The notes under the pieces were generated by a model. That model was not told where the DNA came from. It saw nothing but the letters and a program-made list of their open reading frames with translations, and did no database searches. Positions 9,548-61,976 of a stretch of 64,000 nucleotides of DNA are shown here, piece after piece. The position numbers and the translations under genes were made by a program. This DNA comes from an uncultured cyanobacterium (GTDB taxonomy: Bacteria; Cyanobacteriota; Cyanobacteriia; Phormidesmidales; Phormidesmidaceae), in the NCBI GenBank assembly GCA_963793265.1, contig CAWBZI010000001.1, positions 1,344,001 through 1,408,000 on the forward strand, given 5' to 3'. Positions within the stretch are counted from its first letter, which is position 1; every line of letters begins with the position of its first letter.

Positions 9548-10705
9548 ATGTCTGATAGTACTGTCATTCTCAACGCCCGTTTGCCCAGGCGGAAATCTTC
9601 AGATCTCTATCAGATTGTGATTGAGCAGGGGTTATTGCAGTCTGTAAAGCTGATGAGCGAGGTGCGATCGCCTTTCCTCAAATCAACGGTCATAGACGTG
9701 GCAGGCGACTGGATCTCTTCAGGCGCAGTCGATCTACAAATCAACGGAGCCTTGGGTCTAGCCTTTCCAGACTTAAGAGAAAGTCACTTCGAGCAGCTTC
9801 AGGCAATCTGCGATTTACTATGGCAGCAGGGCATCGATAGTTTTTGTCCGACGCTAGTCACCACCTCGATTGAAAACTTTCACGGCAGCCTATCTGCCAT
9901 TCACAAATTTCAGTCTCAGCAAAAAGGCGGCACCGCTAAAATACTGGGCGCACATTTAGAAGGGCCTTTTTTGAATCCAACAAAGCGCGGCGCACATCCC
10001 GCAGCGTTTTTACAACCGCTGACGCTGGATGCCGTAAAAACAGTCATTGGTGACTTTGTTGAAACCGTCAGCATCGTAACGCTAGCGCCCGAAATAGAAC
10101 AAAATAACGTTATTGAATGGCTCACACATCAAAACATCACAGTCAGCCTGGGTCATTCTTTAGCCACCGCCAAGCAGGCTACACAAGCATTTAATCAGGG
10201 CGCTACGATGGTGACTCACGCCTTTAACGCCATGCCTGGCCTGCATCACCGGGAACCTGGACTGTTGGGCGCAGCGCTCACGGATTCTCGCGTGTCCTGC
10301 GGCTTTATTGCCGACGGGCAGCACATCTGTCCGACCATGCTCAAATTGTTACTTCGCGCTGGGCGAGACAATCTGTTTCTAGTGAGTGACGCGCTCTCAC
10401 CGCTGGGCTTGCCGGACGGTAAATACCCATGGGATTCTCGTGAGATTGAGGTGATCGGTGGAACAGCAAGACTAGCGGATGGAACGCTTTCAGGAACAAC
10501 ACTGTCCTTGATAGAAGGCGCGAAGAATCTAGTGGAATGGGGAATTTGTGACGTGGGAGAGGCGATCGCACTTGTCACCCAAGCCCCCCGCAAAGCAATC
10601 GGCCTGCCCGACCTTGTGCCCAACGCACCCGCCCATCTTATCCGCTGCTGGCAGCACGACGTCCAAACCCATCAACTCAGTTGGCAGCGCCTACAAACTC
10701 TTTAA
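9548..10705 (+). CDS. nagA: N-acetylglucosamine-6-phosphate deacetylase
   Basis: 'DLQING', 'HLEGPFLN..KRGAHP', 'TLAPE', 'SLGHS', 'THAFNAM', 'IADG.H', 'VSDA'. Start moved to ATG 9548 to avoid overlapping purE. Confidence 0.93.
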   Translation: MSDSTVILNARLPRRKSSDLYQIVIEQGLLQSVKLMSEVRSPFLKSTVIDVAGDWISSGAVDLQINGALGLAFPDLRESHFEQLQAICDLLWQQGIDSFCPTLVTTSIENFHGSLSAIHKFQSQQKGGTAKILGAHLEGPFLNPTKRGAHPAAFLQPLTLDAVKTVIGDFVETVSIVTLAPEIEQNNVIEWLTHQNITVSLGHSLATAKQATQAFNQGATMVTHAFNAMPGLHHREPGLLGAALTDSRVSCGFIADGQHICPTMLKLLLRAGRDNLFLVSDALSPLGLPDGKYPWDSREIEVIGGTARLADGTLSGTTLSLIEGAKNLVEWGICDVGEAIALVTQAPRKAIGLPDLVPNAPAHLIRCWQHDVQTHQLSWQRLQTL

Positions 10706-10817
10706 ATCTCCTAATGCATCTCTCATACTTGAGTAATTCGAGACTGCTACCGTCATAGGGCTAAAGCCTTGAACGAAGGTGCGAAAATCACGGCAAAAGG
10801 CACTAGGGGACAAACCG

Positions 10818-12500
10818 ATGACAGACACAGCACAGCTAACATCTGACAAATGGTGGGAAGAGAGCGTCATTTATCAGGTGTATGCGCTGACGTTTGCCGA
10901 TGGCGATGGCGACGGCACGGGGGATCTGCGCGGCATTATCGATCGGCTTGACTATCTAAACGATGGTGACCCCGACAGTAAAACTTCCTTAGGGATAGAC
11001 GCCATCTGGCTCTCACCCATCAACAAGTCTCCCATGATCGACAACGGCTATGACGTTGCTGACTACACAGACGTGTGCTCTACGTTTGGCTCGCTCGCTG
11101 ACTTTGACGAGCTAATTGAAAAGGCACATGAAAGAGGGATCAAAATCATCATGGATTTGGTGGTTAATCACTCTTCTAATCAGCACCCGTGGTTTGTTGA
11201 ATCGCGTCAAAACAGAACCAACCCTAAGGCTGACTGGTACCTGTGGGAAGAGGCCACCGGAGACAGGAAGTATCCTAACAACTGGCAGTCTTACTTTGGT
11301 GGCCCTGGCTGGGCATATTCTCCTGAGCGAGAACAGTTCTACTTTCATACTTTCAATAAAAACCAGCCTGATCTAAACTGGCAAAACCCCGAAGTCGTAG
11401 CAGCGATTCACGACATTATCCGCTTCTGGCTAGACCGTGGCGTAGATGGCTTTCGCCTGGATGCTTCTAGCGTATATAGCAAAGATATTTACTTTCGAGA
11501 TAATCCGATGAAGTATGGTTCTTCGGATAAGAACGATTACAACAACTATCATCATCTATATGACAAGAATTTGCCTGAGAATCACCAGATTTTGAAAGAG
11601 ATGCGGGCGATCGCAGACGAATACGGCAACCGCGTTATCATTGGTGAAACCTTCATCGATAGCCGACTCCACGATTCAGTCGCCTTCTACGGTGTGAATA
11701 ACGACGAGCTGCATTTACCGATTGCCTTCGAGTTTCCCTTTAGCCCCTGGTATCCAGGCTATTTACAAAGAGAGATTGAGAACAAAGAGAAAGTTACGCC
11801 TGCGGGCGCTTGCCCCACTTACTTTCTAGATAATCATGATATTCCTCGGCATATGTCGCGGTGGGTGGAGTGTAGCTTGTGTGTGAATTCGGAGGCGATC
11901 GCAAAAGCCGCTGCTACCATTCTCCTCACCCTTCGAGGCGTCCCCATGCTGTACTACGGCCAAGAGCTGGGCATGGAAGACAATGTGGATATCCCAGCCG
12001 ATAAGCTGCAAGACAAAGCGATTGTAAAAAGCGAGAGTGGTGAAACGCCGCCGCCGCGTGATGGTGCGCGTACGCCGATGCAATGGGATGCCTCTGCCCA
12101 TGCAGGCTTTAGCTTTGGTAAAGATGTAGAGCCTTGGCTACCTGTTCATGCCAATTACAAGGAGGTGAATGTTGCCTCACAGTTACAAGATCCTCAGTCG
12201 ATTTTGAACTTTTATCGGGCGCTGATTCGGGTGCGGAAGCAGAGTGTGGCGTTGAGACGAGGGGGGTGGCGATCGCTCATTCACTATCCTCAAGAGCACA
12301 TGGCCTACCTGCGAGAAGCCGAAGGTGAAACGGTACTCATCGCCATCAACTTCTTTTACGAGCAGCCCTTCACGCTAGACGTACCAATCGACAAAGAAAA
12401 CTGGACAGTACTGCTTTCCACTTCATATGAAGCCGGTAAGCAAGTAGATTTATCAGATACCCTTCAACCCTTTGAAGTCTCTATTTTGAGAAAGATATAG
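10818..12500 (+). CDS. GH13 alpha-glucosidase / oligo-1,6-glucosidase family protein
   Basis: 'VIYQVY..TFAD.DGDG.GDLRGI', 'DNGYDV', 'DLVVNH', 'GVDGFRLD', 'DNHD', 'RDGARTPMQWD'. ATG 10818 follows AGGGG. Confidence 0.92.
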   Translation: MTDTAQLTSDKWWEESVIYQVYALTFADGDGDGTGDLRGIIDRLDYLNDGDPDSKTSLGIDAIWLSPINKSPMIDNGYDVADYTDVCSTFGSLADFDELIEKAHERGIKIIMDLVVNHSSNQHPWFVESRQNRTNPKADWYLWEEATGDRKYPNNWQSYFGGPGWAYSPEREQFYFHTFNKNQPDLNWQNPEVVAAIHDIIRFWLDRGVDGFRLDASSVYSKDIYFRDNPMKYGSSDKNDYNNYHHLYDKNLPENHQILKEMRAIADEYGNRVIIGETFIDSRLHDSVAFYGVNNDELHLPIAFEFPFSPWYPGYLQREIENKEKVTPAGACPTYFLDNHDIPRHMSRWVECSLCVNSEAIAKAAATILLTLRGVPMLYYGQELGMEDNVDIPADKLQDKAIVKSESGETPPPRDGARTPMQWDASAHAGFSFGKDVEPWLPVHANYKEVNVASQLQDPQSILNFYRALIRVRKQSVALRRGGWRSLIHYPQEHMAYLREAEGETVLIAINFFYEQPFTLDVPIDKENWTVLLSTSYEAGKQVDLSDTLQPFEVSILRKI

Positions 12501-12579
12501 CTGTATCAAAATAGGAAAACGCCAGTATTGACTTCGCCGGGCGTAGAACCTTTTAATTAGAAGAAGCTGCTATACACAG

Positions 12580-12852
12580 TCACTTAAACTGGCTGTAGTG
12601 ACTACCAATTGCATGAAGATAGACATGCTCATCATCGAAATCATACACAAGACGATCCCGTTTAGAGATTCGTCTAGCCCAAAGACCTGACAGCTCGTAC
12701 TTTAGTGGTTCTGGCTTACCTGAGCCAACGGTTGGATCGCCCCGCAGCATTTCCCCGATCTGCCTGCGCAAAACCCTATGGGCATTTTTATCTTGCTCCC
12801 GTAGTTTTTCGTAAGCTAGCCAGGTACCAGCTTTGAATACTAAATTCCTCAT
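12580..12852 (-). CDS. yoeB: Txe/YoeB family toxin
   Basis: 'G.GKPEPLKY.LSGLWARRI...DRLVY' and C-terminal 'HY'. Overlaps the antitoxin stop (ATGA). Confidence 0.9.
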   Translation of the reverse strand: MRNLVFKAGTWLAYEKLREQDKNAHRVLRRQIGEMLRGDPTVGSGKPEPLKYELSGLWARRISKRDRLVYDFDDEHVYLHAIGSHYSQFK

Positions 12853-13130
12853 TCAGCATTCACTGACAAAATATCGTCTAGTTCTTGCTGAGTGGGAATG
12901 TAGCCGCCTTGAGCACCGGGCGTCTGCCGAGCCGCTCGAATTTGGCTCATTAAGTATGGATCTTGCAGTATGTAAAGCGTCTCTTGCTCGCTCTCCCAGT
13001 CATCAACACTCATCACAATAAAGTCAGTTCCGTTACGGCGAGTTACTCTTAAAGGCTCGTGGCGACTCGCTGATGACTCTACAAATGTTCTCAGATTATC
13101 GCGGAATTTGTTGACGCTAACGCTTTCCAT
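12849..13130 (-). CDS. yefM: Phd/YefM family antitoxin
   Basis: 'SVN.FR.NL......HEPL.VTRRNG..F.VMS..DW..EQETLY.L'. Confidence 0.9.
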   Translation of the reverse strand: MESVSVNKFRDNLRTFVESSASRHEPLRVTRRNGTDFIVMSVDDWESEQETLYILQDPYLMSQIRAARQTPGAQGGYIPTQQELDDILSVNAE

Positions 13131-13393
13131 AGTGATGAAATACCTTATTCAATATGACGTACGGTATTGCCGTACTTAAATAATAGCTTAGATAGCCAAG
13201 AAGTTTATAAACGAGAAGAGATGGTGAAGGTGATAAAGGTCACCCACAGACAGGAATTCTGATGGCTAAGATCAGAACAAGTTTTTTTGATACGGCTGCT
13301 AAAAGTTACGGATTGTCCGTAGAAGCAGCGTAGAAGAATACTATCTTGATCGGCTTAACAGTTGCATCTCTCTCAATTTCTCAAGGAATTTCT

Positions 13394-14077
13394 ATGGCTA
13401 GTAAGGTCACCCCGCTCTACGCTAAAACTCGCATTTTGTTGAACCTATGGGCGTTGGATGAAACGCCCGCTGCCAAATCTCACTTTGTACCCGGTGGTGA
13501 GGCTTACAAAGCGGCGTTAGCGGAGCTGATAAAAGACGATAGTCTTGCAGAAACACCAAAAACTAAGAAGACGAAAGTCTATTCGCTCACGGCGAGCGGG
13601 CAAGACAAGTTAGCAAAGAACTTAGCAGACGAGGCTTTTGCATTTAGCTCAAATATTGGCCCGAAAACGACTAATGCGCTCTTGAGCTGGATAAGAATCA
13701 TCAGAGCCACAGGTTCACAAAATGAGCAAATGAACCAAGCAGCGGCTCAAACCCACGCCGATAGTCAGCCCTCTACCAACGGCAAGGCTTCTCAAATTGA
13801 TTCCTACGACGAATTTACTCAAACAGCTCTAAAAACCTACGATCAGCTCAATCAGGACTACAACCTGGACGACCTAGTACCTATCTATCGAATTCGTCGG
13901 GAAATAGGCGATCGCCTCCCTCGCCAAAAATTCAATGAATGGCTATTAGAAGTGCAGGCCAACGACCTCGTGCAGCTCATGGGCAGCAACCTATCTAACG
14001 TCACCGCCGACCAAATGGAAGACTCTTTGACCATTCCTGGGGCAGGCGCTAGATTCTTTGTGAAGCGGCTATCTTAG
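13394..14077 (+). CDS. winged-helix DNA-binding protein, RcaD-like
   Basis: AAGGA before ATG 13394. N-terminal 'VYSLTASG' wing motif; C-terminal 'LNQDYNLDDLVPIYRIRREIG..LPR..FNEWLLE.QANDL.QL' domain recalled as resembling cyanobacterial RcaD. Confidence 0.6.
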   Translation: MASKVTPLYAKTRILLNLWALDETPAAKSHFVPGGEAYKAALAELIKDDSLAETPKTKKTKVYSLTASGQDKLAKNLADEAFAFSSNIGPKTTNALLSWIRIIRATGSQNEQMNQAAAQTHADSQPSTNGKASQIDSYDEFTQTALKTYDQLNQDYNLDDLVPIYRIRREIGDRLPRQKFNEWLLEVQANDLVQLMGSNLSNVTADQMEDSLTIPGAGARFFVKRLS

Positions 14078-14124
14078 CTAGCGTTAAAGCAACAAGCCCA
14101 CCCATCCTTTCAGCTCTAAATATA

Positions 14125-18923: not shown

Positions 18924-19634
18924 ATGACCAACTCCACCCTTGATGATAAAACGGTAGTCCGCGACTATTTCAACGCGACGGGCTTCGATCGCTGGAAGCG
19001 CATTTATGGCGACGGTGAAGTAAATAAGGTGCAGGTGAATATTCGCGCCGGGCACCAAAAGACGATTGATAATGTGCTCGAATGGTTCGCTGAAGATGGC
19101 GATTTGTCGCAAATGACGGTGTGCGATGCGGGGTGTGGGGTGGGGAGCCTGGCGATTCCATTAGCGAAGATGGGGGCGAAGGTGTATGCCAGCGATATTT
19201 CTGAGAAGATGGCGGGTGAGGCGGACGTGCGGGCCAAAGCTGAGCTAGCAGATGTGCTGAGCGCTGAGCAAATGCCTGAGTTTGAGGCGAAGGATTTGGA
19301 GGCGATTGAGGGCAGCTATCATACGGTGGTGTGCTTGGACGTGCTGATTCACTATCCGCAGGAGAAGGCGGACAATATGGTGAAGCACCTCAGCTCGCTG
19401 GCTACCGACCGGGTAATTATGAGCTTTGCACCGAAGACCTGCTTTTATGCCACGCTTAAAAAGGTAGGAGACTTTTTTCCGGGGCCGAGTAAGGCGACGC
19501 GGGCCTATTTGCACAGAGAGTCGGATGTGGTGAAAGCGCTGGAGGCAAATGGCTGGGTAATTGGAAGGCGATCGCTCAACAAAGCCCCCTTCTATTTCTC
19601 TCGTTTGCTCGAAGCCACCCGTCCTAGCACATAA
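18924..19634 (+). CDS. chlM: magnesium protoporphyrin IX methyltransferase
   Basis: 'DDKT.V.DYFN.TGFDRW.RIYG', 'CDAGCGVGSL', 'CLDVLIHYP', 'FFPGPSKATRAYLH'. Confidence 0.97.
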   Translation: MTNSTLDDKTVVRDYFNATGFDRWKRIYGDGEVNKVQVNIRAGHQKTIDNVLEWFAEDGDLSQMTVCDAGCGVGSLAIPLAKMGAKVYASDISEKMAGEADVRAKAELADVLSAEQMPEFEAKDLEAIEGSYHTVVCLDVLIHYPQEKADNMVKHLSSLATDRVIMSFAPKTCFYATLKKVGDFFPGPSKATRAYLHRESDVVKALEANGWVIGRRSLNKAPFYFSRLLEATRPST

Positions 19635-22477: not shown

Positions 22478-22482
22478 CGGTG

Positions 22483-24081: not shown

Positions 24082-26511
24082 ATCTTTTGCCTTGAGTGCC
24101 AGCATCCAAAACAGCGGGATTCCAGAATATTCATGAGGCGCAATATTGTTAGCAGGCGCGATCGCTCTAAACGCAGCATTCTTACGAATATCAGGATACG
24201 CATCACAGGCAAATCGATACAGCGCTGAAAACCGTTCTCTATTGAAAGGCTGCTTTTGCCGGTAAGGCCAATCCCGATTGAAATAGGGCAACAGCCACTC
24301 AAATCCTTTCTCTAAACCAGCGCCCTCGCGCGTCGTGTATCGCCATAAGTCAATGCCGACATGCTCCGCAACTTTGGCTAAGTTAGCCCAGTTTTGCAGG
24401 TTAAAGGTGCAGTAGTGCAGCGTGGCGCTTCGCTTCAGTTCTTGAGGCTGTTTGCCACCGGGCTCAAACTGTTTTGCCAGCCTGAGCTTACTGTATTCGA
24501 GCGTTTTGAAAAGAGCGATCGCATCATCACAAAACCCAGCTAGCGCGGCCACTTGAAGATCATAGCAGGTGCCATGATTATTCACCGCTCGCCCCTCTGC
24601 TTGGCCCTGAGCGCTCGTCATCAGCCAGTTCAAAAGCGACTGACACCAGGCTTGTAGCCCTTCATAGTCGGCCTGTGACCACGCATCCGAGTAGCGCAGC
24701 AGCTTCACCGCATCTAAAAAGTAATAGAAATCTTTGGTGTCAATAATGCCCCACCGTGCGCCCAGATTGTTGTTGTTTCCCATCTCAACCTGAGCATATT
24801 TAAGATGAGGCGTCATTTTAGTCGCCGGATCTAAAAACCACGTGCGTACCAGGTTTGCAGCATGGTCTGCATAGTGGCGATCGCCCGTGATATACCAGGC
24901 CATTGCTAAAGTCGTCGTATTGTTTAGCGTTCTCTGTAGGCGAGCGTGGTCGTATTGGTTGCTCTCTTTAGAATATAACTTAGTTGCAGGCATTCGCTGA
25001 CCGTCGCGAAATACATACGGTAAGCCATCGGGCTTCGTTGGATCTGGCCAGCTAAAGGCCGATAGTGAAAAGTAGTCGTGGGGACTACCGCTGGCGGGCA
25101 TGGCTGTTTTTTGCATCACAGAGTAGGCCGGATGCTGGAGGGCTTTGTTAGCTAGTGCCTTGAGCTGTCGAAAGAAATCAAAGGCGCGTGGCTGGCGATC
25201 GCACCGACACTTATACAGGCACTTATCGCGAAACTGATCCAGGGTTTGCTGATTAAAAAACAACAGCTCGTGAGCCTTGAAGCAACGGCGAAAGATGCTT
25301 TCATCAATTGCATCGATAAACTGCCATACCGCCGCCTGCCGGTCAACTGTGCGCCCGCTCAGTCCTGCGCGGCCCTGATCGTGATCTAGCGCGTGGCCAG
25401 AGGCCAGACGAGCGACCCGGCCTGCCGATTGCCACTGGCCCGCTTCAGCAGAAACCGTCCACTGCTTTCGCTCCCAGGGTTTGTAGTTCCACCTGTCCCA
25501 AATGCCCGGTATTTTTAGCCGCCTGAACAGCTCAACTTTGGTAAAACGGCCATACTGTAAAGATTCGTCAAAGCGTTCCTTGGAGCTTTGATGAATTGCA
25601 ATTTGCGGTTCTTCAGTCGGCGGTGGAATTTCGCCGGGCGTAAAAAGCTGCTCGTTGGTAGTTAGCCGAATCATCGGCAAAATAAAGTGTTTAATCGATG
25701 GTTTATTGTCTCGCTTGGGCCTGATCTGAACAGTTTTTAAAACACGACGCCAGGCAGCTAGCGTCATAAAACAGCCGCCGTCTAACACTAGCGTCCAGTC
25801 GGCTTTTTGCTGACCTTCGTCTAAGGCTAAATTGCGGACGGCGTTGAGGTTGATGGCGGCTAGGTTTTTGGGTCTGTAGGGGCGATCGCCCGCCCAAATC
25901 TGACTGTTGCGATCAAGTTTTTGAAAGGCGGGCGATCGCAAAAAATCAGGCTCCAAAAAACTCTCAAAGTCGTAATCCACCCTGGCATAGGCCGCCTTGT
26001 CAAACGGGATATGCCGATACGTTTGATGGTGCGTCGTTAAAGTCTTTAAGATCTTCTGTTCTTGTTCTGCATCTACAATTCTGTTGACTATCCAAGTCTT
26101 TTGGCAGCGATGCAAAGGCGGCTCATGATTCAAAATAAACTCAAGATTGGCCAGCGTTTGCCCCACATAATGACGCGGTGGCAAATCACTGCCTAAGATT
26201 CTGTAAAGAATAAAGCTAGGCGAACTCTGTTGACTCGTCGCGCTCGATACAACACAATCTTCGATGCCTAAAACATTCGAGACAAGGGCATTCCACTCAC
26301 CCAGCTCAGTAAAATTTTCAATATCGAAAGCATGCTTTCGTTGCACAGAGATCTCTTTAAAGCGGGCCACCCAGTCGGCAATGAGCTGACCAGAGAGCCG
26401 TGAGCTTTGAACAGACGCTTTAGAGAAATAGTGGCCCATTGAGTCATAGTTACCGCACCAGTACTGCCACCAGGCAAGGTCTAAAAGGTCAAAGTTGTTC
26501 ATCTTCATCAC
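24046..26511 (-). CDS. fusion of a glycosyltransferase-like domain and an alginate-lyase family domain
   Basis: C-terminal 'HDYFSL..F.WPDP..PDGLPY..RDG', 'TWF.DPATKM.P.L.YAQ', 'NNHGT.YD.Q', 'G.QP.EL.R....HY..FNL'; central 'LYRILG.DLPPRH', 'RN.AL..G', 'LDG.CF'. Confidence 0.8.
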   Translation of the reverse strand: MMKMNNFDLLDLAWWQYWCGNYDSMGHYFSKASVQSSRLSGQLIADWVARFKEISVQRKHAFDIENFTELGEWNALVSNVLGIEDCVVSSATSQQSSPSFILYRILGSDLPPRHYVGQTLANLEFILNHEPPLHRCQKTWIVNRIVDAEQEQKILKTLTTHHQTYRHIPFDKAAYARVDYDFESFLEPDFLRSPAFQKLDRNSQIWAGDRPYRPKNLAAINLNAVRNLALDEGQQKADWTLVLDGGCFMTLAAWRRVLKTVQIRPKRDNKPSIKHFILPMIRLTTNEQLFTPGEIPPPTEEPQIAIHQSSKERFDESLQYGRFTKVELFRRLKIPGIWDRWNYKPWERKQWTVSAEAGQWQSAGRVARLASGHALDHDQGRAGLSGRTVDRQAAVWQFIDAIDESIFRRCFKAHELLFFNQQTLDQFRDKCLYKCRCDRQPRAFDFFRQLKALANKALQHPAYSVMQKTAMPASGSPHDYFSLSAFSWPDPTKPDGLPYVFRDGQRMPATKLYSKESNQYDHARLQRTLNNTTTLAMAWYITGDRHYADHAANLVRTWFLDPATKMTPHLKYAQVEMGNNNNLGARWGIIDTKDFYYFLDAVKLLRYSDAWSQADYEGLQAWCQSLLNWLMTSAQGQAEGRAVNNHGTCYDLQVAALAGFCDDAIALFKTLEYSKLRLAKQFEPGGKQPQELKRSATLHYCTFNLQNWANLAKVAEHVGIDLWRYTTREGAGLEKGFEWLLPYFNRDWPYRQKQPFNRERFSALYRFACDAYPDIRKNAAFRAIAPANNIAPHEYSGIPLFWMLALKAKDSLRSHPVALSK

Positions 26512-37108: not shown

Positions 37109-38356
37109 ATGGATACCAAAGCCTTTAAGCGCGCCCTTAACCACTCCGAAAACTACTACCGCAATCAGGGCTTTGGCCAAAAAGAAGACGTTGCCGGGCA
37201 GATGCGCTCCGAATACGAAAGTAGCCTTATTCAAACTATCCGCAACAACAACAATCTGCTTACCCAGGGCGAAGTCACCATTCACCTGGCCGAATCATTC
37301 GGCTTTTGCTGGGGCGTAGAGCGTGCGGTGGCCATGGCCTACGAAGCAAGGCAGCACTTCCCCGACCAGAAAATTTGGATTACCAACGAAATTATCCATA
37401 ACCCCGAAGTCAACCAGCAGCTCAAGGCGATGAACGTCGCGTTTATTGAGCTGATCGGGAAAGAGAAGGACTTCTCAGGCGTCGGACAGGGCGATGTGGT
37501 GATTCTGCCAGCCTTTGGTGCGAGTGTGCAAGAGATGAAGCTGCTTCACGATAAGGGCTGCGTCATTGTAGACACCACCTGTCCCTGGGTGTCTAAGGTG
37601 TGGAACACCGTTGAAAAGCATAAAAAAAGAGAGTTCACCTCGATTATCCACGGCAAGTACAAGCACGAAGAAACGGTGGCGACTAGCTCATTTGCAGGGA
37701 CTTATCTGGTTGTGCTGAACCTGGATGAGGCTGAGTACGTGGCTCGCTATATTTTGGCAGGGGGCGATCGCACCGAGTTCCTCACCAAGTTTGCCAACGC
37801 TCACTCCGAAGGCTTCGACCCCGACAAAGATCTCGCGGCAGTCGGCATCGCCAATCAAACCACCATGCTCAAAGGCGAAACCGAACAAATCGGCAAACTC
37901 TTCGAGCGCACCATGCTCAAAAAGCACGGGCCCCAGGCGATTAACGACCACTTCCATAGCTTTAACACCATTTGCGATGCCACCCAAGAACGGCAGGACG
38001 CGATGTTTGAGCTAGTGGAGGCGGACGTAGATCTAATAGTCGTTATCGGCGGCTTCAACTCCTCTAATACAACCCACCTGCAAGAGATTGCCGTAGAGCG
38101 CCAGATTCCGTCTTTTCATATAGATAGCGCTGCGCGAGTGGGGCCGGGTAACCGCATTGAGCATCGACCGTTGCATAGTCAGCAAATGAGTCAGCCAGTG
38201 GATGATGAAGGGGTGGCGATCGCAACTAACTGGCTCCCTGCTGGCAACATTTCAGTCGGCGTCACCTCAGGAGCCTCAACCCCTGACAAAGCCGTTCAGG
38301 AAGTGATTGAAAAAATCTTTGCGATTAAGTCTCAGGTGCCTGCTGGCGTAGCTTAA
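37109..38356 (+). CDS. ispH: 4-hydroxy-3-methylbut-2-enyl diphosphate reductase
   Basis: '[11 protein letters not shown]', 'IIHNP', 'DTTCPWV', 'NQTTM', '[11 protein letters not shown]', '[10 protein letters not shown]', 'TSGASTPD'. Confidence 0.97.
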
Positions 38357-40717: not shown

Positions 40718-41076
40718 TACGGGGCGATCGCAGGGATAAATGTGGGCAAATATTTTCGCACTAGCCTGATGAAGCTACCAAAGATCAGTAGAGGCAGGCG
40801 TAATCTTCGAGACACTTTGAGAAAAATCTGAGGATAGATGACGCCTGATATACAAACGAGTAAAGAGGCTGCACGAAAAATTTACCAGAACTGTTGATCT
40901 CAAACTATGCGTGAATTTACGACTCACAGCCGTTCAGATCACGACGTTTCTAGAAAATTGTGCAAACTTTTGCAAGTTTGTGTTTTGTTAATCAATTGTT
41001 AAGAGAATTGTAGCCTGTAATCTTCCGGTCAGGGGTAGGATAAACCGGAATCTTGGATGGCACAGTAGTATTTGTT

Positions 41077-42147
41077 ATGGCGCGTTTTATCCCCATTATT
41101 TTGGCTGGCGGCAAGGGCGAGCGCTTTTGGCCTGTCAGCAGGCTGAAGCGGCCTAAGCAGTTTCTGTGCCTAGACGGCGGCGAGCGATCGCTCTTACAGT
41201 CCACGGCCGATCGCCTGCTGCCGATGGCTGATTGGGCATCGCTTTTTGTCATTACCGCATCGCATTTGGCCGAGGGCGTCCGCGAGCAGCTTCCAGAGAT
41301 TCCTACTGAAAACATATTGGTAGAGCCTCAGGGCCGTGATACTGCCCCAGCCGTGGCCTGGGCAACATTAGAAGTGGCTAAACGCTTTGGCGAAGACGCA
41401 GTTTGCGGGTTTTTCCCTGCCGATCACTACATCACCGATGAAGCGCGCTATCGAGATACGCTAAAAGCAGCGGCTGCGCTAGCGGTGGAGGAAGGGGCGA
41501 TCGCAACCCTTGGCATTACCCCCACTTTTCCCTCTACCGGCTACGGCTACATCGAACAAGGCAACGAAGCAGGCACCTTCAGCGCAGGCACCGTGACCGA
41601 TCTGCCTGCCTATAAGGTCAGCCGCTTTGCCGAAAAACCTGATAAGGCGACTGCCGAAGCCTTCCTTGCCAGCGGCAGATATAGCTGGAACAGCGGCATG
41701 TTTATCTTTCCAGCCGCCGTCATGATCGCAGAGCTGAAGACCCACGCCCCCGAGATGACCTATGCGCTACTCGAAAAAGGTGCAGATGCCTACGCAACGC
41801 TAAAAAAGCTCAGCATTGACTATGCGGTGATGGAAAAAACGGATCGGGCCTACGTGGTACCAGCTAACTTTGGCTGGGATGATTTGGGCGATTGGAATGC
41901 CATTGAACGGCTGCTTAAAGGCGATGCGGACAATGTAGAGCTGTGTCAGCACGTCGGTATCGATAGCCACGGCAGCATTTTGTATAGCGCTGATCCCGCA
42001 GAAGTGATTGTCACGATTGGGCTAGAGGATGTAGTAGTGGTGCGCGATGGCAACGCTACTCTGATCGTGAAAAAAGACCGTACGCAGGAAATTAAGCAGG
42101 CGGTGAAGTCTTTAGGTCAGGAAGATAAATTCCAGCACATGCTGTAA
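41077..42147 (+). CDS. manC: mannose-1-phosphate guanylyltransferase
   Basis: 'PIILAGG.GERFWP.SR..RPKQFL', 'EP.GRDTAPA', 'F.EKPD', 'WNSGMF', 'SIDYAVMEK', 'GWDDLGDW'. Confidence 0.93.
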   Translation: MARFIPIILAGGKGERFWPVSRLKRPKQFLCLDGGERSLLQSTADRLLPMADWASLFVITASHLAEGVREQLPEIPTENILVEPQGRDTAPAVAWATLEVAKRFGEDAVCGFFPADHYITDEARYRDTLKAAAALAVEEGAIATLGITPTFPSTGYGYIEQGNEAGTFSAGTVTDLPAYKVSRFAEKPDKATAEAFLASGRYSWNSGMFIFPAAVMIAELKTHAPEMTYALLEKGADAYATLKKLSIDYAVMEKTDRAYVVPANFGWDDLGDWNAIERLLKGDADNVELCQHVGIDSHGSILYSADPAEVIVTIGLEDVVVVRDGNATLIVKKDRTQEIKQAVKSLGQEDKFQHML

Positions 42148-52868: not shown

Positions 52869-53933
52869 TTAAGGTAGAGGCACAAAGCCTGCTTCTTTGA
52901 GGAGTTCGCCGCCTTCTTCGGTTTGGATGAGCTGGGCGTAGGCGGTGCCTGCTTGCTCGGTTAGCTGGCCGTCTTTGCGGACGATGATGTAGAGCGGGCG
53001 GATAAGGGGGTAGGTTTGGCTTTGGAAGGCGTTGAGGTTTAGCTGATTGCGCTGGGTTGGGCAGCTAGTCGGGGCGACGTAGGGATTTTGGTAGGGGGCG
53101 ACGAGCTGGGAGCCTGATGTGCCGATGGGAAGCGGGGCGACGGTGCACTGGCCGACAATTTCGGGGGCGGAGGCGTAGTAGATGGCTCCTGGGTTTTCGC
53201 TGACGAAGCGGATGGCAGCAGTGGTGGTGTTTTGCCTTTGCACGGTGGGGGCGAAGGGCTGGTCGTTTAGGACGACTTCCTGGAAGAATTGGACGGTGCC
53301 GGAGTCGCCTCGGGAGGTGGGGATGATAGGGAGGTTGGGGCCGCCAACTTGGTTCCAGTTGGTGATGCTGCCCGTGTAGATGTCTTTGAGCTGAGTGAGG
53401 GTGAGGCCGGGGATGGGGAGATCGGGATGGGTGGCGATCGCAACTGCTTCCATCGCCACCGGAATCTCTTGCAGGGTCACACCCCGCTGCTGCGCCTGCT
53501 GCTTTTCTTGTGCGCTCAAAGGCCGTGACGACTGCGCAAACGCCAGCTCGCCGTTGATGAGCAGCTCAATCCCTTCACTTGAGCCTGAAGCGTCTTTATA
53601 AACCAGGGAAAAACCGGGCTGCGCCTGCTGAACTTGGGGGTCAAACGTGCTTCTAAGCGGAGCCCATGTTGTGCTGCCGCCATAGAAAAACCGCCCGTTT
53701 GGAATGTTGGATACGTCTGCAAACGTGCCGCCCGAAAAGGAGCTAGCAATATCTACAGGCTGAGGGTTCTCGGCCCCATTGACCGTCGTTTGCATCGTTT
53801 CTGCGGCGTCAGATAAGCCACCCCCCGACAACAGATCACTGCTCTTGAGCCACCATCCACCCGCCCCAACCACGGCAATCGTGATTCCTAAAGCGATGAT
53901 CAAAGCAGGGGTTTCGTTCTTTGACTGGCTCAT
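52869..53933 (-). CDS. PstS-like phosphate-binding protein (PBP domain), membrane-anchored
   Basis: 'F.YGGSTTWAP.R', 'GS..GI..L', 'LT..QL..IY.G.ITNW..VGG', 'SGT..FF', 'YP..R.LY'. Confidence 0.85.
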   Translation of the reverse strand: MSQSKNETPALIIALGITIAVVGAGGWWLKSSDLLSGGGLSDAAETMQTTVNGAENPQPVDIASSFSGGTFADVSNIPNGRFFYGGSTTWAPLRSTFDPQVQQAQPGFSLVYKDASGSSEGIELLINGELAFAQSSRPLSAQEKQQAQQRGVTLQEIPVAMEAVAIATHPDLPIPGLTLTQLKDIYTGSITNWNQVGGPNLPIIPTSRGDSGTVQFFQEVVLNDQPFAPTVQRQNTTTAAIRFVSENPGAIYYASAPEIVGQCTVAPLPIGTSGSQLVAPYQNPYVAPTSCPTQRNQLNLNAFQSQTYPLIRPLYIIVRKDGQLTEQAGTAYAQLIQTEEGGELLKEAGFVPLP

Positions 53934-56169: not shown

Positions 56170-57333
56170 TTATATGCAATGCCCTGATCGTATTGCCTCT
56201 GTCACAATCGCCACTGTCTGGTCAATTTCAGCTTCAGTAGTTTCTCTTCCAAGCCCGAACCGTAAGGTTGCTCTAGCTAACTCATCACTGCGACCGAGTG
56301 CTTTAATCACATGAGAGGGTGCGGGACTCGCTGAGCTACAGGCTGAACCAGAAGAGAGCGCAATGTGCGGCTGTAGTTGCGAGAGTAGCGTAGCGCCTTT
56401 AATACCTGAGATGCTGACATTAAGGTTGTTGGCAAGGCGCTGTGTAGGATGTCCGTTGAGATAGATATCGGTGAGATTGGTAGAAAGGTGTGTCCAGAGG
56501 CGATCGCGCAACCCCTTCAACCGCTTCATCTCCTCATCCCGCTCAGCCATCGCCAGCCTCAGCGCCTCGCCAAATCCCACAATCTGCGGCGGATAAAGCG
56601 TACCAGAACGCAATCCTCTCTCCTGATCGCCACCATGTAGCTGCGGCGCAAGCTGTACCCGAGGATTTCGCCTGCGCACATACAGCGCGCCAATGCCTTT
56701 AGGGCCGTAGAGCTTATGGGCCGTCATTGAAAGCAGGTCTATATTCATCGCCTGCACGTCAAGGGGGATTTTGCCGAGGGCTTGGGCGGCATCGGTATGG
56801 AAAAGGATATTGCGATCGCAACACATCTCCCCAATCTCTTTAACCGGCTGCAACACCCCAATCTCATTATTCGCCGCCATCACCGACACTAAAATTGTCT
56901 CAGGCCGAAACGCCTGCTCCAAAGTCTCTAATTGAAGGAGCCCTTGAGAATCTACCGGCAAATAAGTCACGCTAAAACCCAAACGCTCCAGGTATCGGCA
57001 GGGCTCAAGCACCGCGCTATGCTCTGTTTGCACAGTAATAATATGTTTGCCATCGCTCATATAAGATTCGGCAACGCCTTTAATCGCCAGATTGTTAGCT
57101 TCTGTTGCACCGCTTGTAAAAACAATCTCTACAGGCTCCGCATTAATCGCCTTAGCGATAATATCTCTCGCCTTATCAATGCCTGCCTCAGCCTCCCAAC
57201 CATACGAGTGATTCAGGCTGCTAGGATTACCAAAATACTCTGTAAAAAACGGCAGCATCGTCTCCAGCACACGCGGATCAACCGGCGTGGTTGCGTTACT
57301 GTCTAAATAAATAGGACGACTGGCTTTGTTCAT
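56170..57333 (-). CDS. iscS: cysteine desulfurase (IscS/NifS type)
   Basis: 'IYLD.NATTP', 'FTSGATE.NN', 'HTDAAQ', 'AHKLYGPKG', 'RSGT', 'SSGSACSS'. Confidence 0.93.
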   Translation of the reverse strand: MNKASRPIYLDSNATTPVDPRVLETMLPFFTEYFGNPSSLNHSYGWEAEAGIDKARDIIAKAINAEPVEIVFTSGATEANNLAIKGVAESYMSDGKHIITVQTEHSAVLEPCRYLERLGFSVTYLPVDSQGLLQLETLEQAFRPETILVSVMAANNEIGVLQPVKEIGEMCCDRNILFHTDAAQALGKIPLDVQAMNIDLLSMTAHKLYGPKGIGALYVRRRNPRVQLAPQLHGGDQERGLRSGTLYPPQIVGFGEALRLAMAERDEEMKRLKGLRDRLWTHLSTNLTDIYLNGHPTQRLANNLNVSISGIKGATLLSQLQPHIALSSGSACSSASPAPSHVIKALGRSDELARATLRFGLGRETTEAEIDQTVAIVTEAIRSGHCI

Positions 57334-57725
57334 ATCGACTCTATTTCTTCATTTTGTTCCCTCAGCACGAACCGATCAAAGAAACCAATGGCTTCGTAAT
57401 TTCCAAAAGGCGTTTCGGTAACATATGTGCTAAATAGCAGGCGATTTTTTCGCTCTGTATTCGTAACAATTAGATCTTGTACTTCTTCAGCAGTAAGGCT
57501 CTCGCTACCTGCAACGACGCCTTGACAAGCTTTACTAATTGCCTCACCTACTCGCCCGAGCCATTCAGCAAACCCTTCGGGCTGACACACCGAAGCTTCC
57601 ACTTCATCAGCGACCGTTGTTGAAAGGTACTGCGCGTAGTCTTCTTCAGTAGGGTTCGTAATAAATAATGCGCCGCCCAAGGCTACCAGCGAAAACAGCG
57701 CTATAGAAGGAACAACTTTTTTCAT
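57330..57725 (-). CDS. DUF4359 family protein
   Basis: Hydrophobic leader plus 'TNP....Y..Y', two Cys and 'T.R.N.LLFS.Y.T'. Confidence 0.75.
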   Translation of the reverse strand: MKKVVPSIALFSLVALGGALFITNPTEEDYAQYLSTTVADEVEASVCQPEGFAEWLGRVGEAISKACQGVVAGSESLTAEEVQDLIVTNTERKNRLLFSTYVTETPFGNYEAIGFFDRFVLREQNEEIESI

Positions 57726-57794
57726 GATCGATTAACCTAAAAGAGAAGACAGTGTGAGACTGTATGAGATCTGTGACTATCCTAACGTAACGCT

Positions 57795-58370
57795 ATGAAC
57801 ACACCTGCTCATGCCATTTTCAATCTGGCACTGCTGGGTCGCAAAAAGCAGCCGCAGTGGAATCCGCTCATTATCTGGGGTGCGCTCATTCCCGATTTGG
57901 CGATGTTCGCGTTTTACCTATGGCTCAGGCTCGCTACAGACATTCCAGAAAACCAGATTTGGCGAGTAGAGTACTATCGGCCCTTCTGGCAAACGCTGTT
58001 TGACTGGTTCAACTCTATTCCGCTGGCGCTGCTGGGAATGGGCGTCATGTTTTATGCCAGGCGTACCGGGATTGCGCTACTGTTTGCCAGCATTTTGCTA
58101 CATTGCTTGCAGGATCTACCGCTCCACAATGACGACGCGCATCGGCACTTTTTACCCCTGAGTAACTATCGCTTCGAGAGCCCGCTTTCTTATTGGGATC
58201 CCGACCACTATGGTCAAATTATGGGGCTGATAGAGCTAGTGCTGATGGTGGTTGCAAGCATCTATGTTTTTAGGCGGGTGCGATCGCGCTGGACTAAAGG
58301 TCTTTTAATCTCAGTTAACGTACCAGCGTTGCTCCTGCTCGCATATCTAGCGTTCACTGCCGTCACATAA
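57795..58370 (+). CDS. membrane protein, metal-dependent hydrolase-like
   Basis: 'MNTP.H', 'GA..PD', 'LH...D.PLH.DDAH.HF.P', 'SP.SYWD'. Confidence 0.75.
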   Translation: MNTPAHAIFNLALLGRKKQPQWNPLIIWGALIPDLAMFAFYLWLRLATDIPENQIWRVEYYRPFWQTLFDWFNSIPLALLGMGVMFYARRTGIALLFASILLHCLQDLPLHNDDAHRHFLPLSNYRFESPLSYWDPDHYGQIMGLIELVLMVVASIYVFRRVRSRWTKGLLISVNVPALLLLAYLAFTAVT

Positions 58371-59200
58371 ATCGCCTGCGGGCTTGTCATTTCACGCAGT
58401 TCAATTCGCTTCACGCTGGGCAACTGCCACCAGGGAACGTGCGGAAACGCATGGTGCTCACGATGATAGCCAAAGTGATAGCAGGTGATTAGGGAAACTA
58501 GCCAGGGCCAATAGTTGCTATTAGTCCGCAAGGATGACTGGTAGGTGTCGTGCTGCTTGCGGTGCACCAAGTAAGTGCCAAAGTAAAAGAGCTGCATAGA
58601 ACTGAGCAGCGATGGAATGGCCCAAAAAGCGAGCAAGTTTGCTTCAGGCACACCCATCACGCGATATAGGCCGTTGTAAATGACCGCAATGCCTAGCGAC
58701 TGGCGCAGCGTCCAATAGCTGCGCATAAAACGGAAGTACCACAGCACCGGATGGGTGTGCTTGCCGTTATGAAAGTCGGGGTCGTGATGGCTAGCGGGAA
58801 AGCGGTGATGCTCGGTGTGGGCCTCGTGGAGTTTGTCGTAAGGAATCAGGCCGTAGAGGAAAAGAGCTAGTTCACCTAATGCTCGGTTGAGCTTAGGACG
58901 ATTAGGGGCAATCGTTTCGTGCATGGCATCGTGGCCAGTGACAAAAAGACCCGTGTATAAAAAGGTGAACCATGGGATGAGGAGCCCGCAGCCAACCGGG
59001 CCAATTTCGCTAGCGCCAGTGGTAAATGCAGTTGAGAAGCTAACGGCCCAGACAAGCAAAATAGACAGCGCTACAATCACGCCGCCATTGGATTGACCAT
59101 CGGCGGGAAGGGGTAGTTGAATCTGTGTTTTGAGATAGGCCTTTAGTTTGTGAAAGTTGGGTTTATGGGTTGATAAGTAGGAAAAAGGCGCTCTGATCAA
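58262..59200 (-). CDS. crtW: beta-carotene ketolase
   Basis: His boxes 'TGLF.T.HDAMH', 'H..HH..P....DPDFH', 'QLF.FGT.L.H', 'TCYHFGYH.EHH..P.VPWW.LP'. The start is uncertain. Confidence 0.9.
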   Translation of the reverse strand: MIRAPFSYLSTHKPNFHKLKAYLKTQIQLPLPADGQSNGGVIVALSILLVWAVSFSTAFTTGASEIGPVGCGLLIPWFTFLYTGLFVTGHDAMHETIAPNRPKLNRALGELALFLYGLIPYDKLHEAHTEHHRFPASHHDPDFHNGKHTHPVLWYFRFMRSYWTLRQSLGIAVIYNGLYRVMGVPEANLLAFWAIPSLLSSMQLFYFGTYLVHRKQHDTYQSSLRTNSNYWPWLVSLITCYHFGYHREHHAFPHVPWWQLPSVKRIELREMTSPQAIYVTAVNARYASRSNAGTLTEIKRPLVQRDRTRLKT

Positions 59201-59339
59201 AACAGGTGGCTCAGGATATTAGCGAGGGTGTATTGGCGAGGGCGGGAAAAACCCACACACTATGAAATCACAAATCATAAAAATCTTGATGTGTTCTCAT
59301 CCCGTCTAGTCGCCTGGTTTATAGCGGCGGCTACAAACC

Positions 59340-61976
59340 TCACGATAAATTCAAAGGATCGACATCAATACTCAAGCTGGTGCCTTTTGGAATCTGCTTT
59401 TGCAGACCCGTAAGCACTGGTAACTGTGTTTGTAAGGGTAGCTTGATGAGGATGTGCCATCGGTAGCGGCGGGCCACTCGATAAATTGGCGCAGGTACAG
59501 GCCCGAGAATGTCGTAGGTGGTTTCTTCCAATTGATTTTCAAGGTGATCGCCCTCCTGACTCACCACTAGGTGATCGCGCACCTGCTGCGCCGTTTCTTC
59601 AGTCACCCGTTCATCGAGCCCGCTAATGCGCAAAAGCACCAGCCGCCCGTATGGCGGATAGGAAAGGGCTGCGCGATCGCCCATTTCCGTCTTCAAAAAA
59701 TCAGCATACGCCACCTGCGAATTCACAGGCACCTCTGGCAATGGATCCACATCCTTAGCCTTTTGCACAAGCGCCTGAATCGCTACATGCTCTGGGCTAT
59801 AGGTTTGCACAATCACCCGCCCCGGCTGCTCACCCCGTCCGGCTCGCCCTGCAACCTGCGTCATCGTCTGAAACGCTCGTTCACTCGCCCTAAAATCAGG
59901 CATAAACAGCAGCCCATCAGCCGCAATTACCCCCACCAACGTCACCTGCGGCAAATCAATCCCCTTCGTCAGCATTTGGGTGCCCACCAGTAAATCAGCC
60001 TCTCCTTGCGCAAAGCGAGTCAGCAGTGCCCGGTGTGCGCCCTTATTGCGTGTGGTGTCACTGTCGAATCGAATGCAGCGAGCCTGGGGCAAGTACTTTG
60101 CCAGGTCGTTGACCACGCGCTGGGTGCCGCTGCCGAAGTTTTTAAGGTAGGGCGAGGCGCACTCAGGACATTCTTTCGGATGGCGCTGGCCGTAGCCGCA
60201 ATAGTGACATTGCAGCCGGGCGGTGGCGTTTGGATGCGGCTGATGAAAAGACAGCGACACGTCACAGTGCGGGCACTCCATCACATAGCCACAGCTCCGA
60301 CAGGACACAAAGCTGCTGTGCCCCCGCCGATGAATAAATAAAATGCCCTGGTTGCCGGTTGCGATAAGTTCTTCGAGCGCTTTTTGTAAAGAGCGGCTAA
60401 AGACGGTGCGATTGCCTTCGTGCAGCTCAGTTCGCATATCGACGACTTCAATCGGCGGCAACGGGCGGGCGTGAACCCGCTGCGGGAGGGAAAGGTAGTG
60501 GCGATCGCACGCTAAATCTGCCTGCGGATTATCCGGCGTCCGCTCAGGCGTGATCGCTACATCGCCTTTAAACCTCACCCACGTCTCAATCGAAGGCGTA
60601 GCCGACCCTAATATCAGCGGACACGCTTCCAATTCAGCGCGCCACCGCGCCACCTGCCGGGCGTGATAGCAGGGCATCGGCTGATCTTGCTTAAAGCTGC
60701 TGTCGTGCTCTTCATCTAAAATAATCATGCCGAGGTTGGGCAGGGGCGCAAATACCGCCGAGCGAGTACCGATAATGACCTGCGGGCTGCCGGTGAGCAT
60801 TTGCCGCCAGGTGTCGTAGCGCTCGCCTTCTGAAAGGCCGCTGTGGTAGACACAAACCTTGTCACCAAAGCGACTGCGAAAGCGATCGGTGAGCTGCGGG
60901 GTCAGACCGATTTCGGGCACGAGGACTAGGGCAGACTTTTGGGCTTGAAGGATAGGGGCGATCGCCTGCAAATACACCTCGGTTTTACCCGAACCCGTGA
61001 CGCCGTGCAGCAGCCCCTCGCTATAGCCTTTCATTTGCTGAAGCACAGCTAGCGCCCGAGCCTGATCGTCAGTCAACGCTTTAGGCCGATCGGGCAGCGC
61101 CGAAGAATGACTGCTAGCGCGTAAGATTTCGCGCGGCTCAATCACTAAGTAGCCTTTATTAGCAATGCTTTTTAGCGTCTTACTGGTGGTGTGTAAAAGC
61201 TGAAGCGCATCGCTGAGCCACAGTTCGCCGCCCTGCTGAGCTAAGGCTGCTAGTAATTCGTGCTGGCGATGTGTGAGATTAGGATCGTCATCAGGCGGCT
61301 GCGCGATGAGTGAAACGGCCTGGCGCTTTTGTGCTTTGGGCGATCGCGGTGGTGATAGATAATTTTCAGCTAGGCCCCGGTTAACTAGCTCGCCGAGAGC
61401 TTTGCTAATTTCAGTCAGTTTGTACTGCGGCTTGAGCTGACGCCGAATGTGCTGCCAGCTATAGTCCTGTTCGGGTGAGTTTTTGAGAACTGTTGTTAGA
61501 TCTAGGGCTGAGGGAGAAAGGCTTTGATTTATATTTTGATCGATAGTTTGATGGGTAGACGGTGCGTCGTTTGACTTTTGTTGTATCTGCGAATTAGGAG
61601 AAAGTAATCTTACTCTTCTTTGCGATCGCGACAACAATCCCGGCGGCAGGGCCGTACGTAATACTCGAATAAGCGGCGTTTGATAGTAGCGAGCAACACG
61701 GTTTAAAAGTCGCCAGTAGTGTTTACTGAAAAAGCTTGTGTTGATCAAACTTTCTATTGTTTTGATAGAGGAGGGGACAACCCCCTCAGGGGGATGGGAT
61801 AGGGGTTTGATAGCGATCGCACCCACCCGCTGCGCCCCAAATGAGACGCTGACAATATCTCCTGGATGCACCTCGAAATGCTCTGGCACGCGGTAGGTGT
61901 ACAGATCTGTAGCGCCCGGACAGTCTACCAAAACTTCGATTAACGCATCGCGCGGGCGAGGTGAGACGAAACACAT
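59340..61976 (-). CDS. priA: primosomal protein N' helicase
   Basis: 'LLHGVTGSGKTEVY', 'ILDEEHD', 'GSATPS', four CxxC pairs, 'GTQM..KG.D.P.VTLV', 'QVAGRAGR'. Confidence 0.96.
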   Translation of the reverse strand: MCFVSPRPRDALIEVLVDCPGATDLYTYRVPEHFEVHPGDIVSVSFGAQRVGAIAIKPLSHPPEGVVPSSIKTIESLINTSFFSKHYWRLLNRVARYYQTPLIRVLRTALPPGLLSRSQRRVRLLSPNSQIQQKSNDAPSTHQTIDQNINQSLSPSALDLTTVLKNSPEQDYSWQHIRRQLKPQYKLTEISKALGELVNRGLAENYLSPPRSPKAQKRQAVSLIAQPPDDDPNLTHRQHELLAALAQQGGELWLSDALQLLHTTSKTLKSIANKGYLVIEPREILRASSHSSALPDRPKALTDDQARALAVLQQMKGYSEGLLHGVTGSGKTEVYLQAIAPILQAQKSALVLVPEIGLTPQLTDRFRSRFGDKVCVYHSGLSEGERYDTWRQMLTGSPQVIIGTRSAVFAPLPNLGMIILDEEHDSSFKQDQPMPCYHARQVARWRAELEACPLILGSATPSIETWVRFKGDVAITPERTPDNPQADLACDRHYLSLPQRVHARPLPPIEVVDMRTELHEGNRTVFSRSLQKALEELIATGNQGILFIHRRGHSSFVSCRSCGYVMECPHCDVSLSFHQPHPNATARLQCHYCGYGQRHPKECPECASPYLKNFGSGTQRVVNDLAKYLPQARCIRFDSDTTRNKGAHRALLTRFAQGEADLLVGTQMLTKGIDLPQVTLVGVIAADGLLFMPDFRASERAFQTMTQVAGRAGRGEQPGRVIVQTYSPEHVAIQALVQKAKDVDPLPEVPVNSQVAYADFLKTEMGDRAALSYPPYGRLVLLRISGLDERVTEETAQQVRDHLVVSQEGDHLENQLEETTYDILGPVPAPIYRVARRYRWHILIKLPLQTQLPVLTGLQKQIPKGTSLSIDVDPLNLS

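Follow-up and report, generated by a model that had tools for sequence, protein, structure and literature searches.

Why does the base composition of a cyanobacterial genome flip at a short palindrome? The question is raised by a 64,000-nucleotide stretch (the window) of an uncultured cyanobacterium of the Phormidesmidaceae (GenBank assembly GCA_963793265.1, contig CAWBZI010000001.1, forward-strand positions 1,344,001 to 1,408,000), in which the octamer HIP1, GCGATCGC, occurs at 80 sites from 1744 to 61820, or 1.25 per kb. The element has no strand of its own, and each site centres flanks that are G-rich on the 5′ side and C-rich on the 3′ side, a pattern mirrored on both strands because HIP1 is a palindrome. 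An earlier note, made by eye from the sequence, had described G/T-rich DNA giving way to C/A-rich DNA at HIP1 whatever the coding strand, and had inferred a strand-asymmetric mutation or repair process centred on HIP1, one example being cytosine deamination on a strand exposed by nicking and excision. Counting bore out the flip: with 100-bp flanks beginning 5 bp out, upstream skew exceeded downstream skew at 71 of the 80 sites, whereas sets of 80 positions chosen at random, drawn 2,000 times, averaged 39.3 and never exceeded 53. HIP1 has been without an established function for about thirty years, and its flank pattern is a genome-wide feature rather than that of one locus. The chances are judged about even that it stems from mismatch correction, in which the HIP1 strand would be rewritten 5′→3′ from its partner, so that HIP1 directs the resolution of nearby mismatches.

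Composition of the HIP1 flanks

The source genome (G000; 5.68 Mb, 7 contigs, 6,888 HIP1 sites) was analyzed with genes called by a dicodon script of our own, which may miss short genes; its nearest named IspH relatives are 82-85% identical and mostly labelled Phormidesmis. On contig C1 the folded all-site skew fell from 0.20 at 10-20 bp to 0.10 at 50-75 bp and 0.02 at 200-300 bp. Over 10-100 bp HIP1 reached 0.121, against a mean of -0.001 (standard deviation 0.027) for 147 other palindromic octamers, and ranked first among those with at least 10 copies on this contig. CGATCG outside HIP1 (427 copies on C1) gave a folded skew of 0.001, and 9,375 isolated copies of GATC an antisymmetric skew of -0.009, i.e., no signal. 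Plotted by signed distance at fourfold-degenerate sites, sense-frame skew was +0.60/-0.60 at 4-10 bp, +0.41/-0.41 at 21-40 bp, and +0.17/-0.17 at 101-150 bp. This antisymmetric profile runs well past the immediate flanks, is absent around control octamers, and is alike for plus- and minus-strand genes, which upholds the claimed independence from coding strand.

The spectrum of this shift is dominated by G and C. At fourfold sites on the 5′ strand the log enrichments were about +0.44 for G, -0.47 for C, -0.13 for A, and -0.07 for T (ranking G > A≈T > C), and 8 of 8 fourfold boxes shifted. The G versus C part of the composition first described by eye therefore stands, and its T/A part is small at these sites (log A/T -0.06 versus log G/C +0.85), reaching log A/T -0.39 at other third positions. 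No sequence-context preference was found in the flanks, where APOBEC- and CpG-like contexts were checked, and fourfold GC within genes rose slightly (+0.024 at 21-60 bp from HIP1). Relative to fourfold sites, the response was 0.26 in intergenic DNA, 0.19 at first, and 0.11 at second codon positions, and it extended across gene borders at about half strength. The small shift at first and second positions is what would be expected of a coding artefact, in which amino acids or codons adjoining the HIP1 residues create the skew, but the signal is strongest at fourfold sites and alike in the three HIP1 frames (0.42, 0.39, and 0.38). The weak intergenic skew was set aside as a problem, since regional skew is damped comparably (intergenic 0.15, first position 0.08, second position 0.05).

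The shape of the decay is equally distinctive. A single exponential gave a length of ~70 bp and a two-part additive fit 62 bp plus ~1,070 bp. After controlling for codon box, gene position, and regional skew, the log-odds were +1.56 at 4-20 bp, +0.88 at 41-80, +0.44 at 121-240, +0.23 at 481-960, and +0.11 at 961-1499, and control words under the same controls gave about -0.03. Where one HIP1 lay behind another, its long tail persisted but its short-range part was mostly gone (0.30 vs 0.88 at 41-80 bp), a loss that could also reflect saturation or younger sites. Together, the ~1-kb tail and this loss fit tracts better than a binding footprint. The skew also increased with protein conservation (0.87 to 1.16 log-odds), which is compatible with site age as well. 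Neither 10.5-bp helical phasing nor mirror complementarity was seen in the flanks (observed/expected ratio, O/E, ~1 from 4 bp outward and <1 at 1-3 bp), and a hairpin or cruciform extension of the palindrome found no support, there being no mirror complementarity beyond base composition. The bases directly beside HIP1 avoid complementarity in this genome (O/E 0.58 in frame 1 and 0.62 in intergenic DNA, all four pairs low), so that perfect 10-bp palindromes are under-represented. The opposite, palindromic extension of HIP1, appears for other lineages in Table 3 of Elhai (PMC4390886).

Regional fourfold GC skew in the source genome is patchy, about -0.3 to +0.3 over 50-100 kb segments, and is the same on the plus strand for both gene orientations (r 0.73, split-half reliability 0.96), which looks like a mixed replichore history. 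This regional skew persists undiluted in the HIP1 flanks (slope 0.98 ± 0.06), and both flanks shift by ~1.0 log-odds whatever its sign (+1.02/-1.03 and +1.05/-1.00), the HIP1 effect being additive with it in log-odds and similar in spectrum. As in replication-strand GC skew, G exceeds C with a weaker excess of T over A, and the damping outside fourfold sites is similar; unlike it, the HIP1 effect consists of thousands of ~100-bp local flips atop the regional skew and independent of its sign. The shared, gene-strand-independent spectrum would suit a replication-fork signature, with HIP1 as a preferred Okazaki priming site or a local origin or terminus. Such a lagging-strand effect should hit one side, however, and both shift equally when fork direction is assumed from the regional skew, making this the least probable of the explanations considered here. 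A position-fixed choice of strand need not erase regional skew, so the undiluted skew excludes only added mutagenesis and one-sided fork effects.

Site dependence and the spectrum of substitutions

Comparison between lineages showed that the flank skew depends on the presence of the site. Orthologous flanks in the source genome had a skew of +0.525 where HIP1 is common with three relatives (206 sites) and of +0.151 where only the three relatives carry it (147 sites). The commonest loss of HIP1 is C2>T, giving GTGATCGC, which made up 40 of the non-carrier words at 117 sites that one genome has lost and, with 766 copies in the source genome, is the commonest among twelve one-off words individually counted; these decayed copies retain a two-sided ghost of +0.73/-0.65 log-odds. 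Reverse causation, with HIP1 arising or surviving at pre-existing flips, would explain why non-carrier flanks already show ~0.2 where only one of three genomes has HIP1 (0.195 at 38 sites also without HIP1 in the source genome), a value that probably reflects a mix of double losses and regains. Against it stand the far weaker flanks where the source genome has no HIP1, the many non-carrier words that are decay products such as GTGATCGC, the null result with control words, and the continued tilt of recent substitutions beside conserved sites. Taken together with the coding artefact discussed above, it is a highly improbable account.

Substitutions were analyzed in a trio of congeners (G004, G007, and G009; 85-86% identity, ~655 kb each, 468 orthologue triples, 58,626 fourfold sites), which was used in place of the source genome because the congeners of the latter are only ~72-79% identical over aligned stretches. 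Fourfold divergence was 0.32 near conserved HIP1 and 0.31-0.32 far from it, and the near/far ratio of the total rate by maximum likelihood was 0.995 (confidence interval, CI, 0.94-1.05), where near denotes 4-60 bp on the 5′ strand and CIs derive from 60 bootstraps over genes. At this constant rate, changes toward G were raised (C>G 2.20, CI 1.5-3.0; T>G 1.20; A>G 1.17) and changes away from G lowered (G>C 0.77, G>T 0.83, G>A 0.91), the remaining ratios being 1.68 for A>T (CI 1.1-2.2), 1.28 for C>A, and 0.96 for C>T (CI 0.81-1.12). Models with box-specific backgrounds at 25,026 near sites gained 0.0 log-likelihood units for C>T only, 3.8 for C>T plus A>G, 10.7 for raise-only, 11.8 for lower-only, 27.9 for a balanced mismatch-pair model, 29.8 for a selection-type model, 37.6 for six pairs, and 49.9 for a free fit. 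The balanced tilt at constant total rate, combined with the undiluted regional skew, indicates that the bias multiplies existing flows in a push-pull manner and is not an added mutagenic flux. In the same trio, amino-acid identity was lower near HIP1 (0.89-0.91) than far from it (0.92), and in G007 and G009 G on the 5′ strand was lost faster than gained.

These results bear directly on the damage explanation, in which excision or resection starting at HIP1 lays bare single strands that then suffer extra lesions, either deamination or, on the other strand, oxidative G>C and G>T. A C-poor 5′ strand has the sign expected from 5′→3′ resection followed by C>T, and the 2.2-fold rise in C>G and a C>T excess of ~1.15-1.24x on the 5′ strand by parsimony at twofold sites are also in its favor. 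Yet neither the total rate nor C>T is elevated, a C>T-only model gains nothing, and a raise-only model falls well behind the balanced ones (10.7 versus 28-30). T is not raised at fourfold sites on the 5′ strand, GC there is slightly up rather than down, and the regional skew is undiluted, whereas added mutagenic flux would dilute it. Extra damage is thus very unlikely, and single-strand deamination is largely refuted for this trio: of the mechanism first proposed, a strand-asymmetric process centred on HIP1 is supported and cytosine deamination on the exposed strand is not.

A more serious competitor is weak selection or molecular drive, in which DNA with a G-rich strand 5′ of HIP1 is taken up, loaded, or invades better, so that G fixes without repair bias. 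One example would be a recombinase that favors G-rich 3′ tails once the DNA has been cut at HIP1, and RecA prefers GT-rich DNA. The selection-type model is the best one-parameter fit, and the unchanged total rate, the additivity in log-odds, and the ranking G > A≈T > C all accord with it. HIP1 has moreover been reported to promote transformation (10.1101/2024.09.10.611283) and to co-vary with type IV secretion and uptake families (PMC13756078). A binding footprint does not, however, readily explain a tail that extends past 1 kb or the drop in the short-range part when another HIP1 intervenes, and phasing and mirror complementarity are both absent. The C<->G tilt also exceeds the prediction of additive base fitness, a CG-only model alone gaining 20.3 and the free fit giving C>G +1.29 versus A>G +0.24. 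Selection or drive is therefore regarded as unlikely, though it deserves more weight than the damage, coding, and fork explanations.

Strand replacement from HIP1 as a candidate mechanism

Under mismatch correction, the strand that begins at HIP1 and extends 3′ would be excised and resynthesized 5′→3′ starting at a nick or end, and the strand on the 5′ side of HIP1 would be retained as the template, with a reach of ~60-70 bp and a weaker tail to ~1 kb. The kept-strand base would win more often when the mismatch is well recognised (G:G >> C:C), or a misinserted G would survive there; this advantage of G on the kept strand would let G accumulate 5′ and C accumulate 3′ with the total rate unchanged. 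Two routes to this outcome can be envisaged. By a replication route, misinsertions would be cleared on the 3′ side of a HIP1 nick but become fixed or escape notice on its 5′ side, and given the error preferences of replication the 5′ strand would gain misinserted G. By a heteroduplex route, the HIP1-starting strand would be excised on mismatch recognition and the kept 5′ strand would gain G, since correction acts on G:G but not on C:C, as has been shown in E. coli (PMC5021808). Both routes would give the same polarity, and either may apply. We infer nicking, the direction of excision, the involvement of MutS/MutL, and a mismatch source in either replication errors or recombination/transformation heteroduplex. 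In its widest form, which is put forward tentatively and at somewhat less than even chances, HIP1 would be the entry of an undescribed, MutH-independent, one-directional strand replacement, probably by MutS/MutL, acting as a strand-polar biased gene conversion that rewrites silent and some amino-acid-changing positions with a strength varying between lineages and over time.

Several results weigh against this interpretation. With one parameter each, a selection-type model does as well as the mismatch-pair model (29.8 vs 27.9), and six pairs are only modestly better by the Akaike information criterion (-63.2 vs -57.7). The standing skew would require a tilt of 0.55, roughly twice the s = 0.30 currently seen in the trio. 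Simulation did not trace this gap to estimator bias and, with heterogeneity included, returned 0.51-0.60, so that the process seems to be weaker at present in these genomes. The rate test rests on this one trio at ~32% silent divergence, and the twofold-site excess of C>T leaves room for a minor share of deamination alongside mismatch correction. The 7-mer half-sites (GCGATCG) gave +0.24 on their 5′ flank and +0.10 on their 3′ flank, an antisymmetric part of ~0.07 versus ~1.1 for HIP1; one-sided action of half-sites was dropped as an idea, conditioning on local composition explaining the 5′/3′ difference equally well. The predicted direction relies on mismatch hierarchies measured in E. coli and not in cyanobacteria. 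Some HIP1-dense genomes are unskewed, such as G029 with 3 sites/kb and a fourfold skew of ~0.02, and among 62 genomes none of the m5C (5-methylcytosine) methyltransferase homologue, MutL, RecJ, and MutY separates skewed from unskewed.

These 62 genomes were picked for high, middle, or low skew. The m5C methyltransferase homologue was present in 41 of them, MutL in 62, RecJ in 61, and MutY in 34. In a search confined to m5C-type enzymes, no methyltransferase homologue reached E <= 1e-40 in the strongly skewed genomes G077, G039, and G282, whereas one was present in the unskewed G202, G196, and G216, so that this homologue seems neither required for skew nor enough to produce it. Several unskewed genomes have one copy of RecJ or a weak second, and many others two good copies; inspection by eye of the numbers of GTGATCGC in these genomes revealed no obvious pattern. 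The source genome has MutY and two RecJ matches, the second of which (C6:55790-57223) is a 477-aa open reading frame that matches profile positions 6-386 only, compared with mostly near 800 aa in relatives, and is possibly truncated or split. In the window itself, mutY lies at 401-1528 (+) with a C-terminal Nudix/MutT-like domain.

No enzyme that nicks at HIP1 was identified. The MutL of the source genome carries a putative endonuclease-type motif, and a MutS-type ATPase and Pol I were presumptively recognised there by motifs. A conserved C5 methyltransferase is encoded at C4:631026-632336, with a presumed specificity for CGATCG. Seven loci match C5 methyltransferases, of which one is interrupted by internal stops and another aligns as two separate pieces (C1:809848-811017, C4:92953-94237, C1:1596714). 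MutH was not found with one motif, no profile search having been made, and mutH was reported absent from all cyanobacteria examined in PMC5101192.

A close precedent is the hypothetical GmeC-directed mismatch repair at HIP1 proposed by Elhai (Life 2015, PMC4390886), in which HIP1 likewise serves as the strand signal for MutS/MutL excision without MutH. The prevalence of C2>T among HIP1 losses is what would be expected if C2 is m5C, and m5CGATCG has been shown for Synechocystis (PMC6105098). The accessible text of the Elhai model predicts gain of the HIP1 word and lists extensions of 1-2 bases, but not polar flank skew or a one-way tract; it also treats 7-mer half-sites as active, whereas those of the source genome appear nearly inactive, and ties the effect to the m5C enzyme, whose homologue does not track skew across the 62 genomes. 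Similarly to E. coli Dam/MutH, a short methylated GATC-containing palindrome would pick the replaced strand with a reach near 1 kb (PMC4390886); unlike that system, plain GATC is unskewed in the source genome and mutH is reported missing from the cyanobacteria examined (PMC5101192).

Dam/MutH excision in E. coli is, in addition, bidirectional, unlike the one-way tract proposed for HIP1. GC-biased gene conversion and the strand asymmetries at eukaryotic recombination hotspots offer a second comparison. Shared with biased conversion are the push-pull without a higher total rate, the decay from an initiation site, and the movement of amino-acid-changing positions; the differences are that the HIP1 bias is a strand-polar preference of G over C with a GC gain of <=0.024, and that it is anchored on a fixed octamer, about one per kb, in bacteria. 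Like Chi sites and DNA uptake sequences, HIP1 is an over-represented word linked to recombination or transformation, and both Chi-like and uptake-like roles have been proposed for it (10.1101/2024.09.10.611283; PMC13756078). Homologous HIP1 raises integration in PCC 7002 without a need for AddAB (10.1101/2024.09.10.611283), and this AddAB independence distinguishes it from Chi, which is also polar and non-palindromic. The feature works like strand-directed mismatch correction or polar biased conversion, and it may lie outside the systems described so far.

No report of polar flank composition at HIP1 was found in a literature search that did not cover subscription journals, among them much of the older HIP1 work. 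The accessible text of PMC5861425 has no match for 'asymmetr', and that of PMC13756078 uses 'skew' only about sampling; the polar skew is apparently unpublished. This footprint supplies a direction, a length scale (~60-70 bp plus ~1 kb), a signature (C>G up, G>C down, total rate constant), and a strength for each genome, which makes repair and recombination hypotheses testable. If strand replacement of variable strength is the cause, flank skew would be a sequence-only record of HIP1 activity and tract length. Since some HIP1-dense genomes are unskewed, a host for experiments must be chosen with care. At about ±1.5 log-odds, the shift at silent sites beside HIP1 is also enough to distort analyses of codon usage and selection in cyanobacteria.

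Distribution across cyanobacteria and sites in the window

For a survey of the phylum, both strands were scored for G and C at the position 16 bp upstream of HIP1, where contributions from coding skew cancel out. The source genome gave 4,406 G versus 2,888 C, with two separate counts in agreement, or +0.208, the second highest value. From 261 genomes drawn across the phylum, 120 with appreciable counts were entered, and 100 of the 112 with at least 500 were G-tilted (68 at z > 3 and 2 at z < -3; median +0.069), figures to be read knowing that kin are not independent and that a single flank position is a noisy measure, on which alone several genomes were classed. The tilt is common in HIP1-rich genomes, and skew did not correlate with HIP1 density across those surveyed. 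Fourfold checks on 20-60 kb agreed with the survey (genus pool +0.30 to +0.39 within 60 bp; G039 +0.23, G192 +0.16, G202 ~-0.08). Beyond the closest group, 68 named loci pooled, which all surround ispH and hence are not independent, gave +0.23, +0.19, +0.11, +0.08, and +0.04 with distance (955 sites). The HIP1 flank skew is therefore real, large, octamer-specific, and widespread but lineage-variable.

Outside the class of the source genome, HIP1 is abundant in G117, G122, G105, G119, G088, G108, G114, and G061, with a G tilt of +0.05 to +0.15. Locus L199 of genome G295 is hyper-abundant in CGATCG instead of GCGATCGC (83 in 12.7 kb, 2 of them as HIP1); CGATCG has a weak tilt of the same polarity genome-wide in G295 (13,559 G vs 12,095 C at 17 bp), L199 alone not being significant. 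Genome G147 is HIP1-poor in a HIP1-rich genus (g25) and has abundant GGCGCC, a word whose flanks were unskewed in G147 (4,834 G vs 4,812 C) and did not clearly lean toward G in any of 26 genomes. On contig C1 of the source genome, GGCGCC, GCCGGC, CCCGGG, and GAGCTC are nearly absent (2-5 copies each), resembling restriction-site avoidance. Stretches of 20 kb with 0-1 HIP1 occur at L139 (G077:C1:1-20000), L190, and L201; the first may be foreign DNA because G077 is otherwise HIP1-dense.

Within the window, the eight examples singled out in the earlier note proved correct: each is an exact start of GCGATCGC, with positive GC skew upstream and negative skew downstream at 50, 100, and 200 bp, and the genes and strands named for them agree. 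The host genes nagA, chlM, ispH, and priA score above NCBIfam cut-offs, and the GH13-like, manC-like, pstS-like, and iscS-like genes are profile matches below the cut-off. In plus-strand genes, with 50-bp skews given as upstream/downstream, the sites lie at 10562..10569 in nagA (9548-10705; +0.68/-0.38), 12269..12276 in an alpha-amylase-family glycosidase (GH13-like) gene (10818-12500; +0.58/-0.15), 19568..19575 in chlM (18924-19634; +0.63/-0.54), 37764..37771 in ispH (37109-38356; +0.36/-0.38), and 41497..41504 in the manC-like gene (41053-42147; +0.33/-0.50). In minus-strand genes, with skew still read on the plus strand, they lie at 53434..53441 in the pstS-like gene (52869-53933; +0.69/-0.33), 56500..56507 in the iscS-like gene (56170-57333; +0.57/-0.61), and 61813..61820 in priA (59340-61931; +0.50/-0.31).

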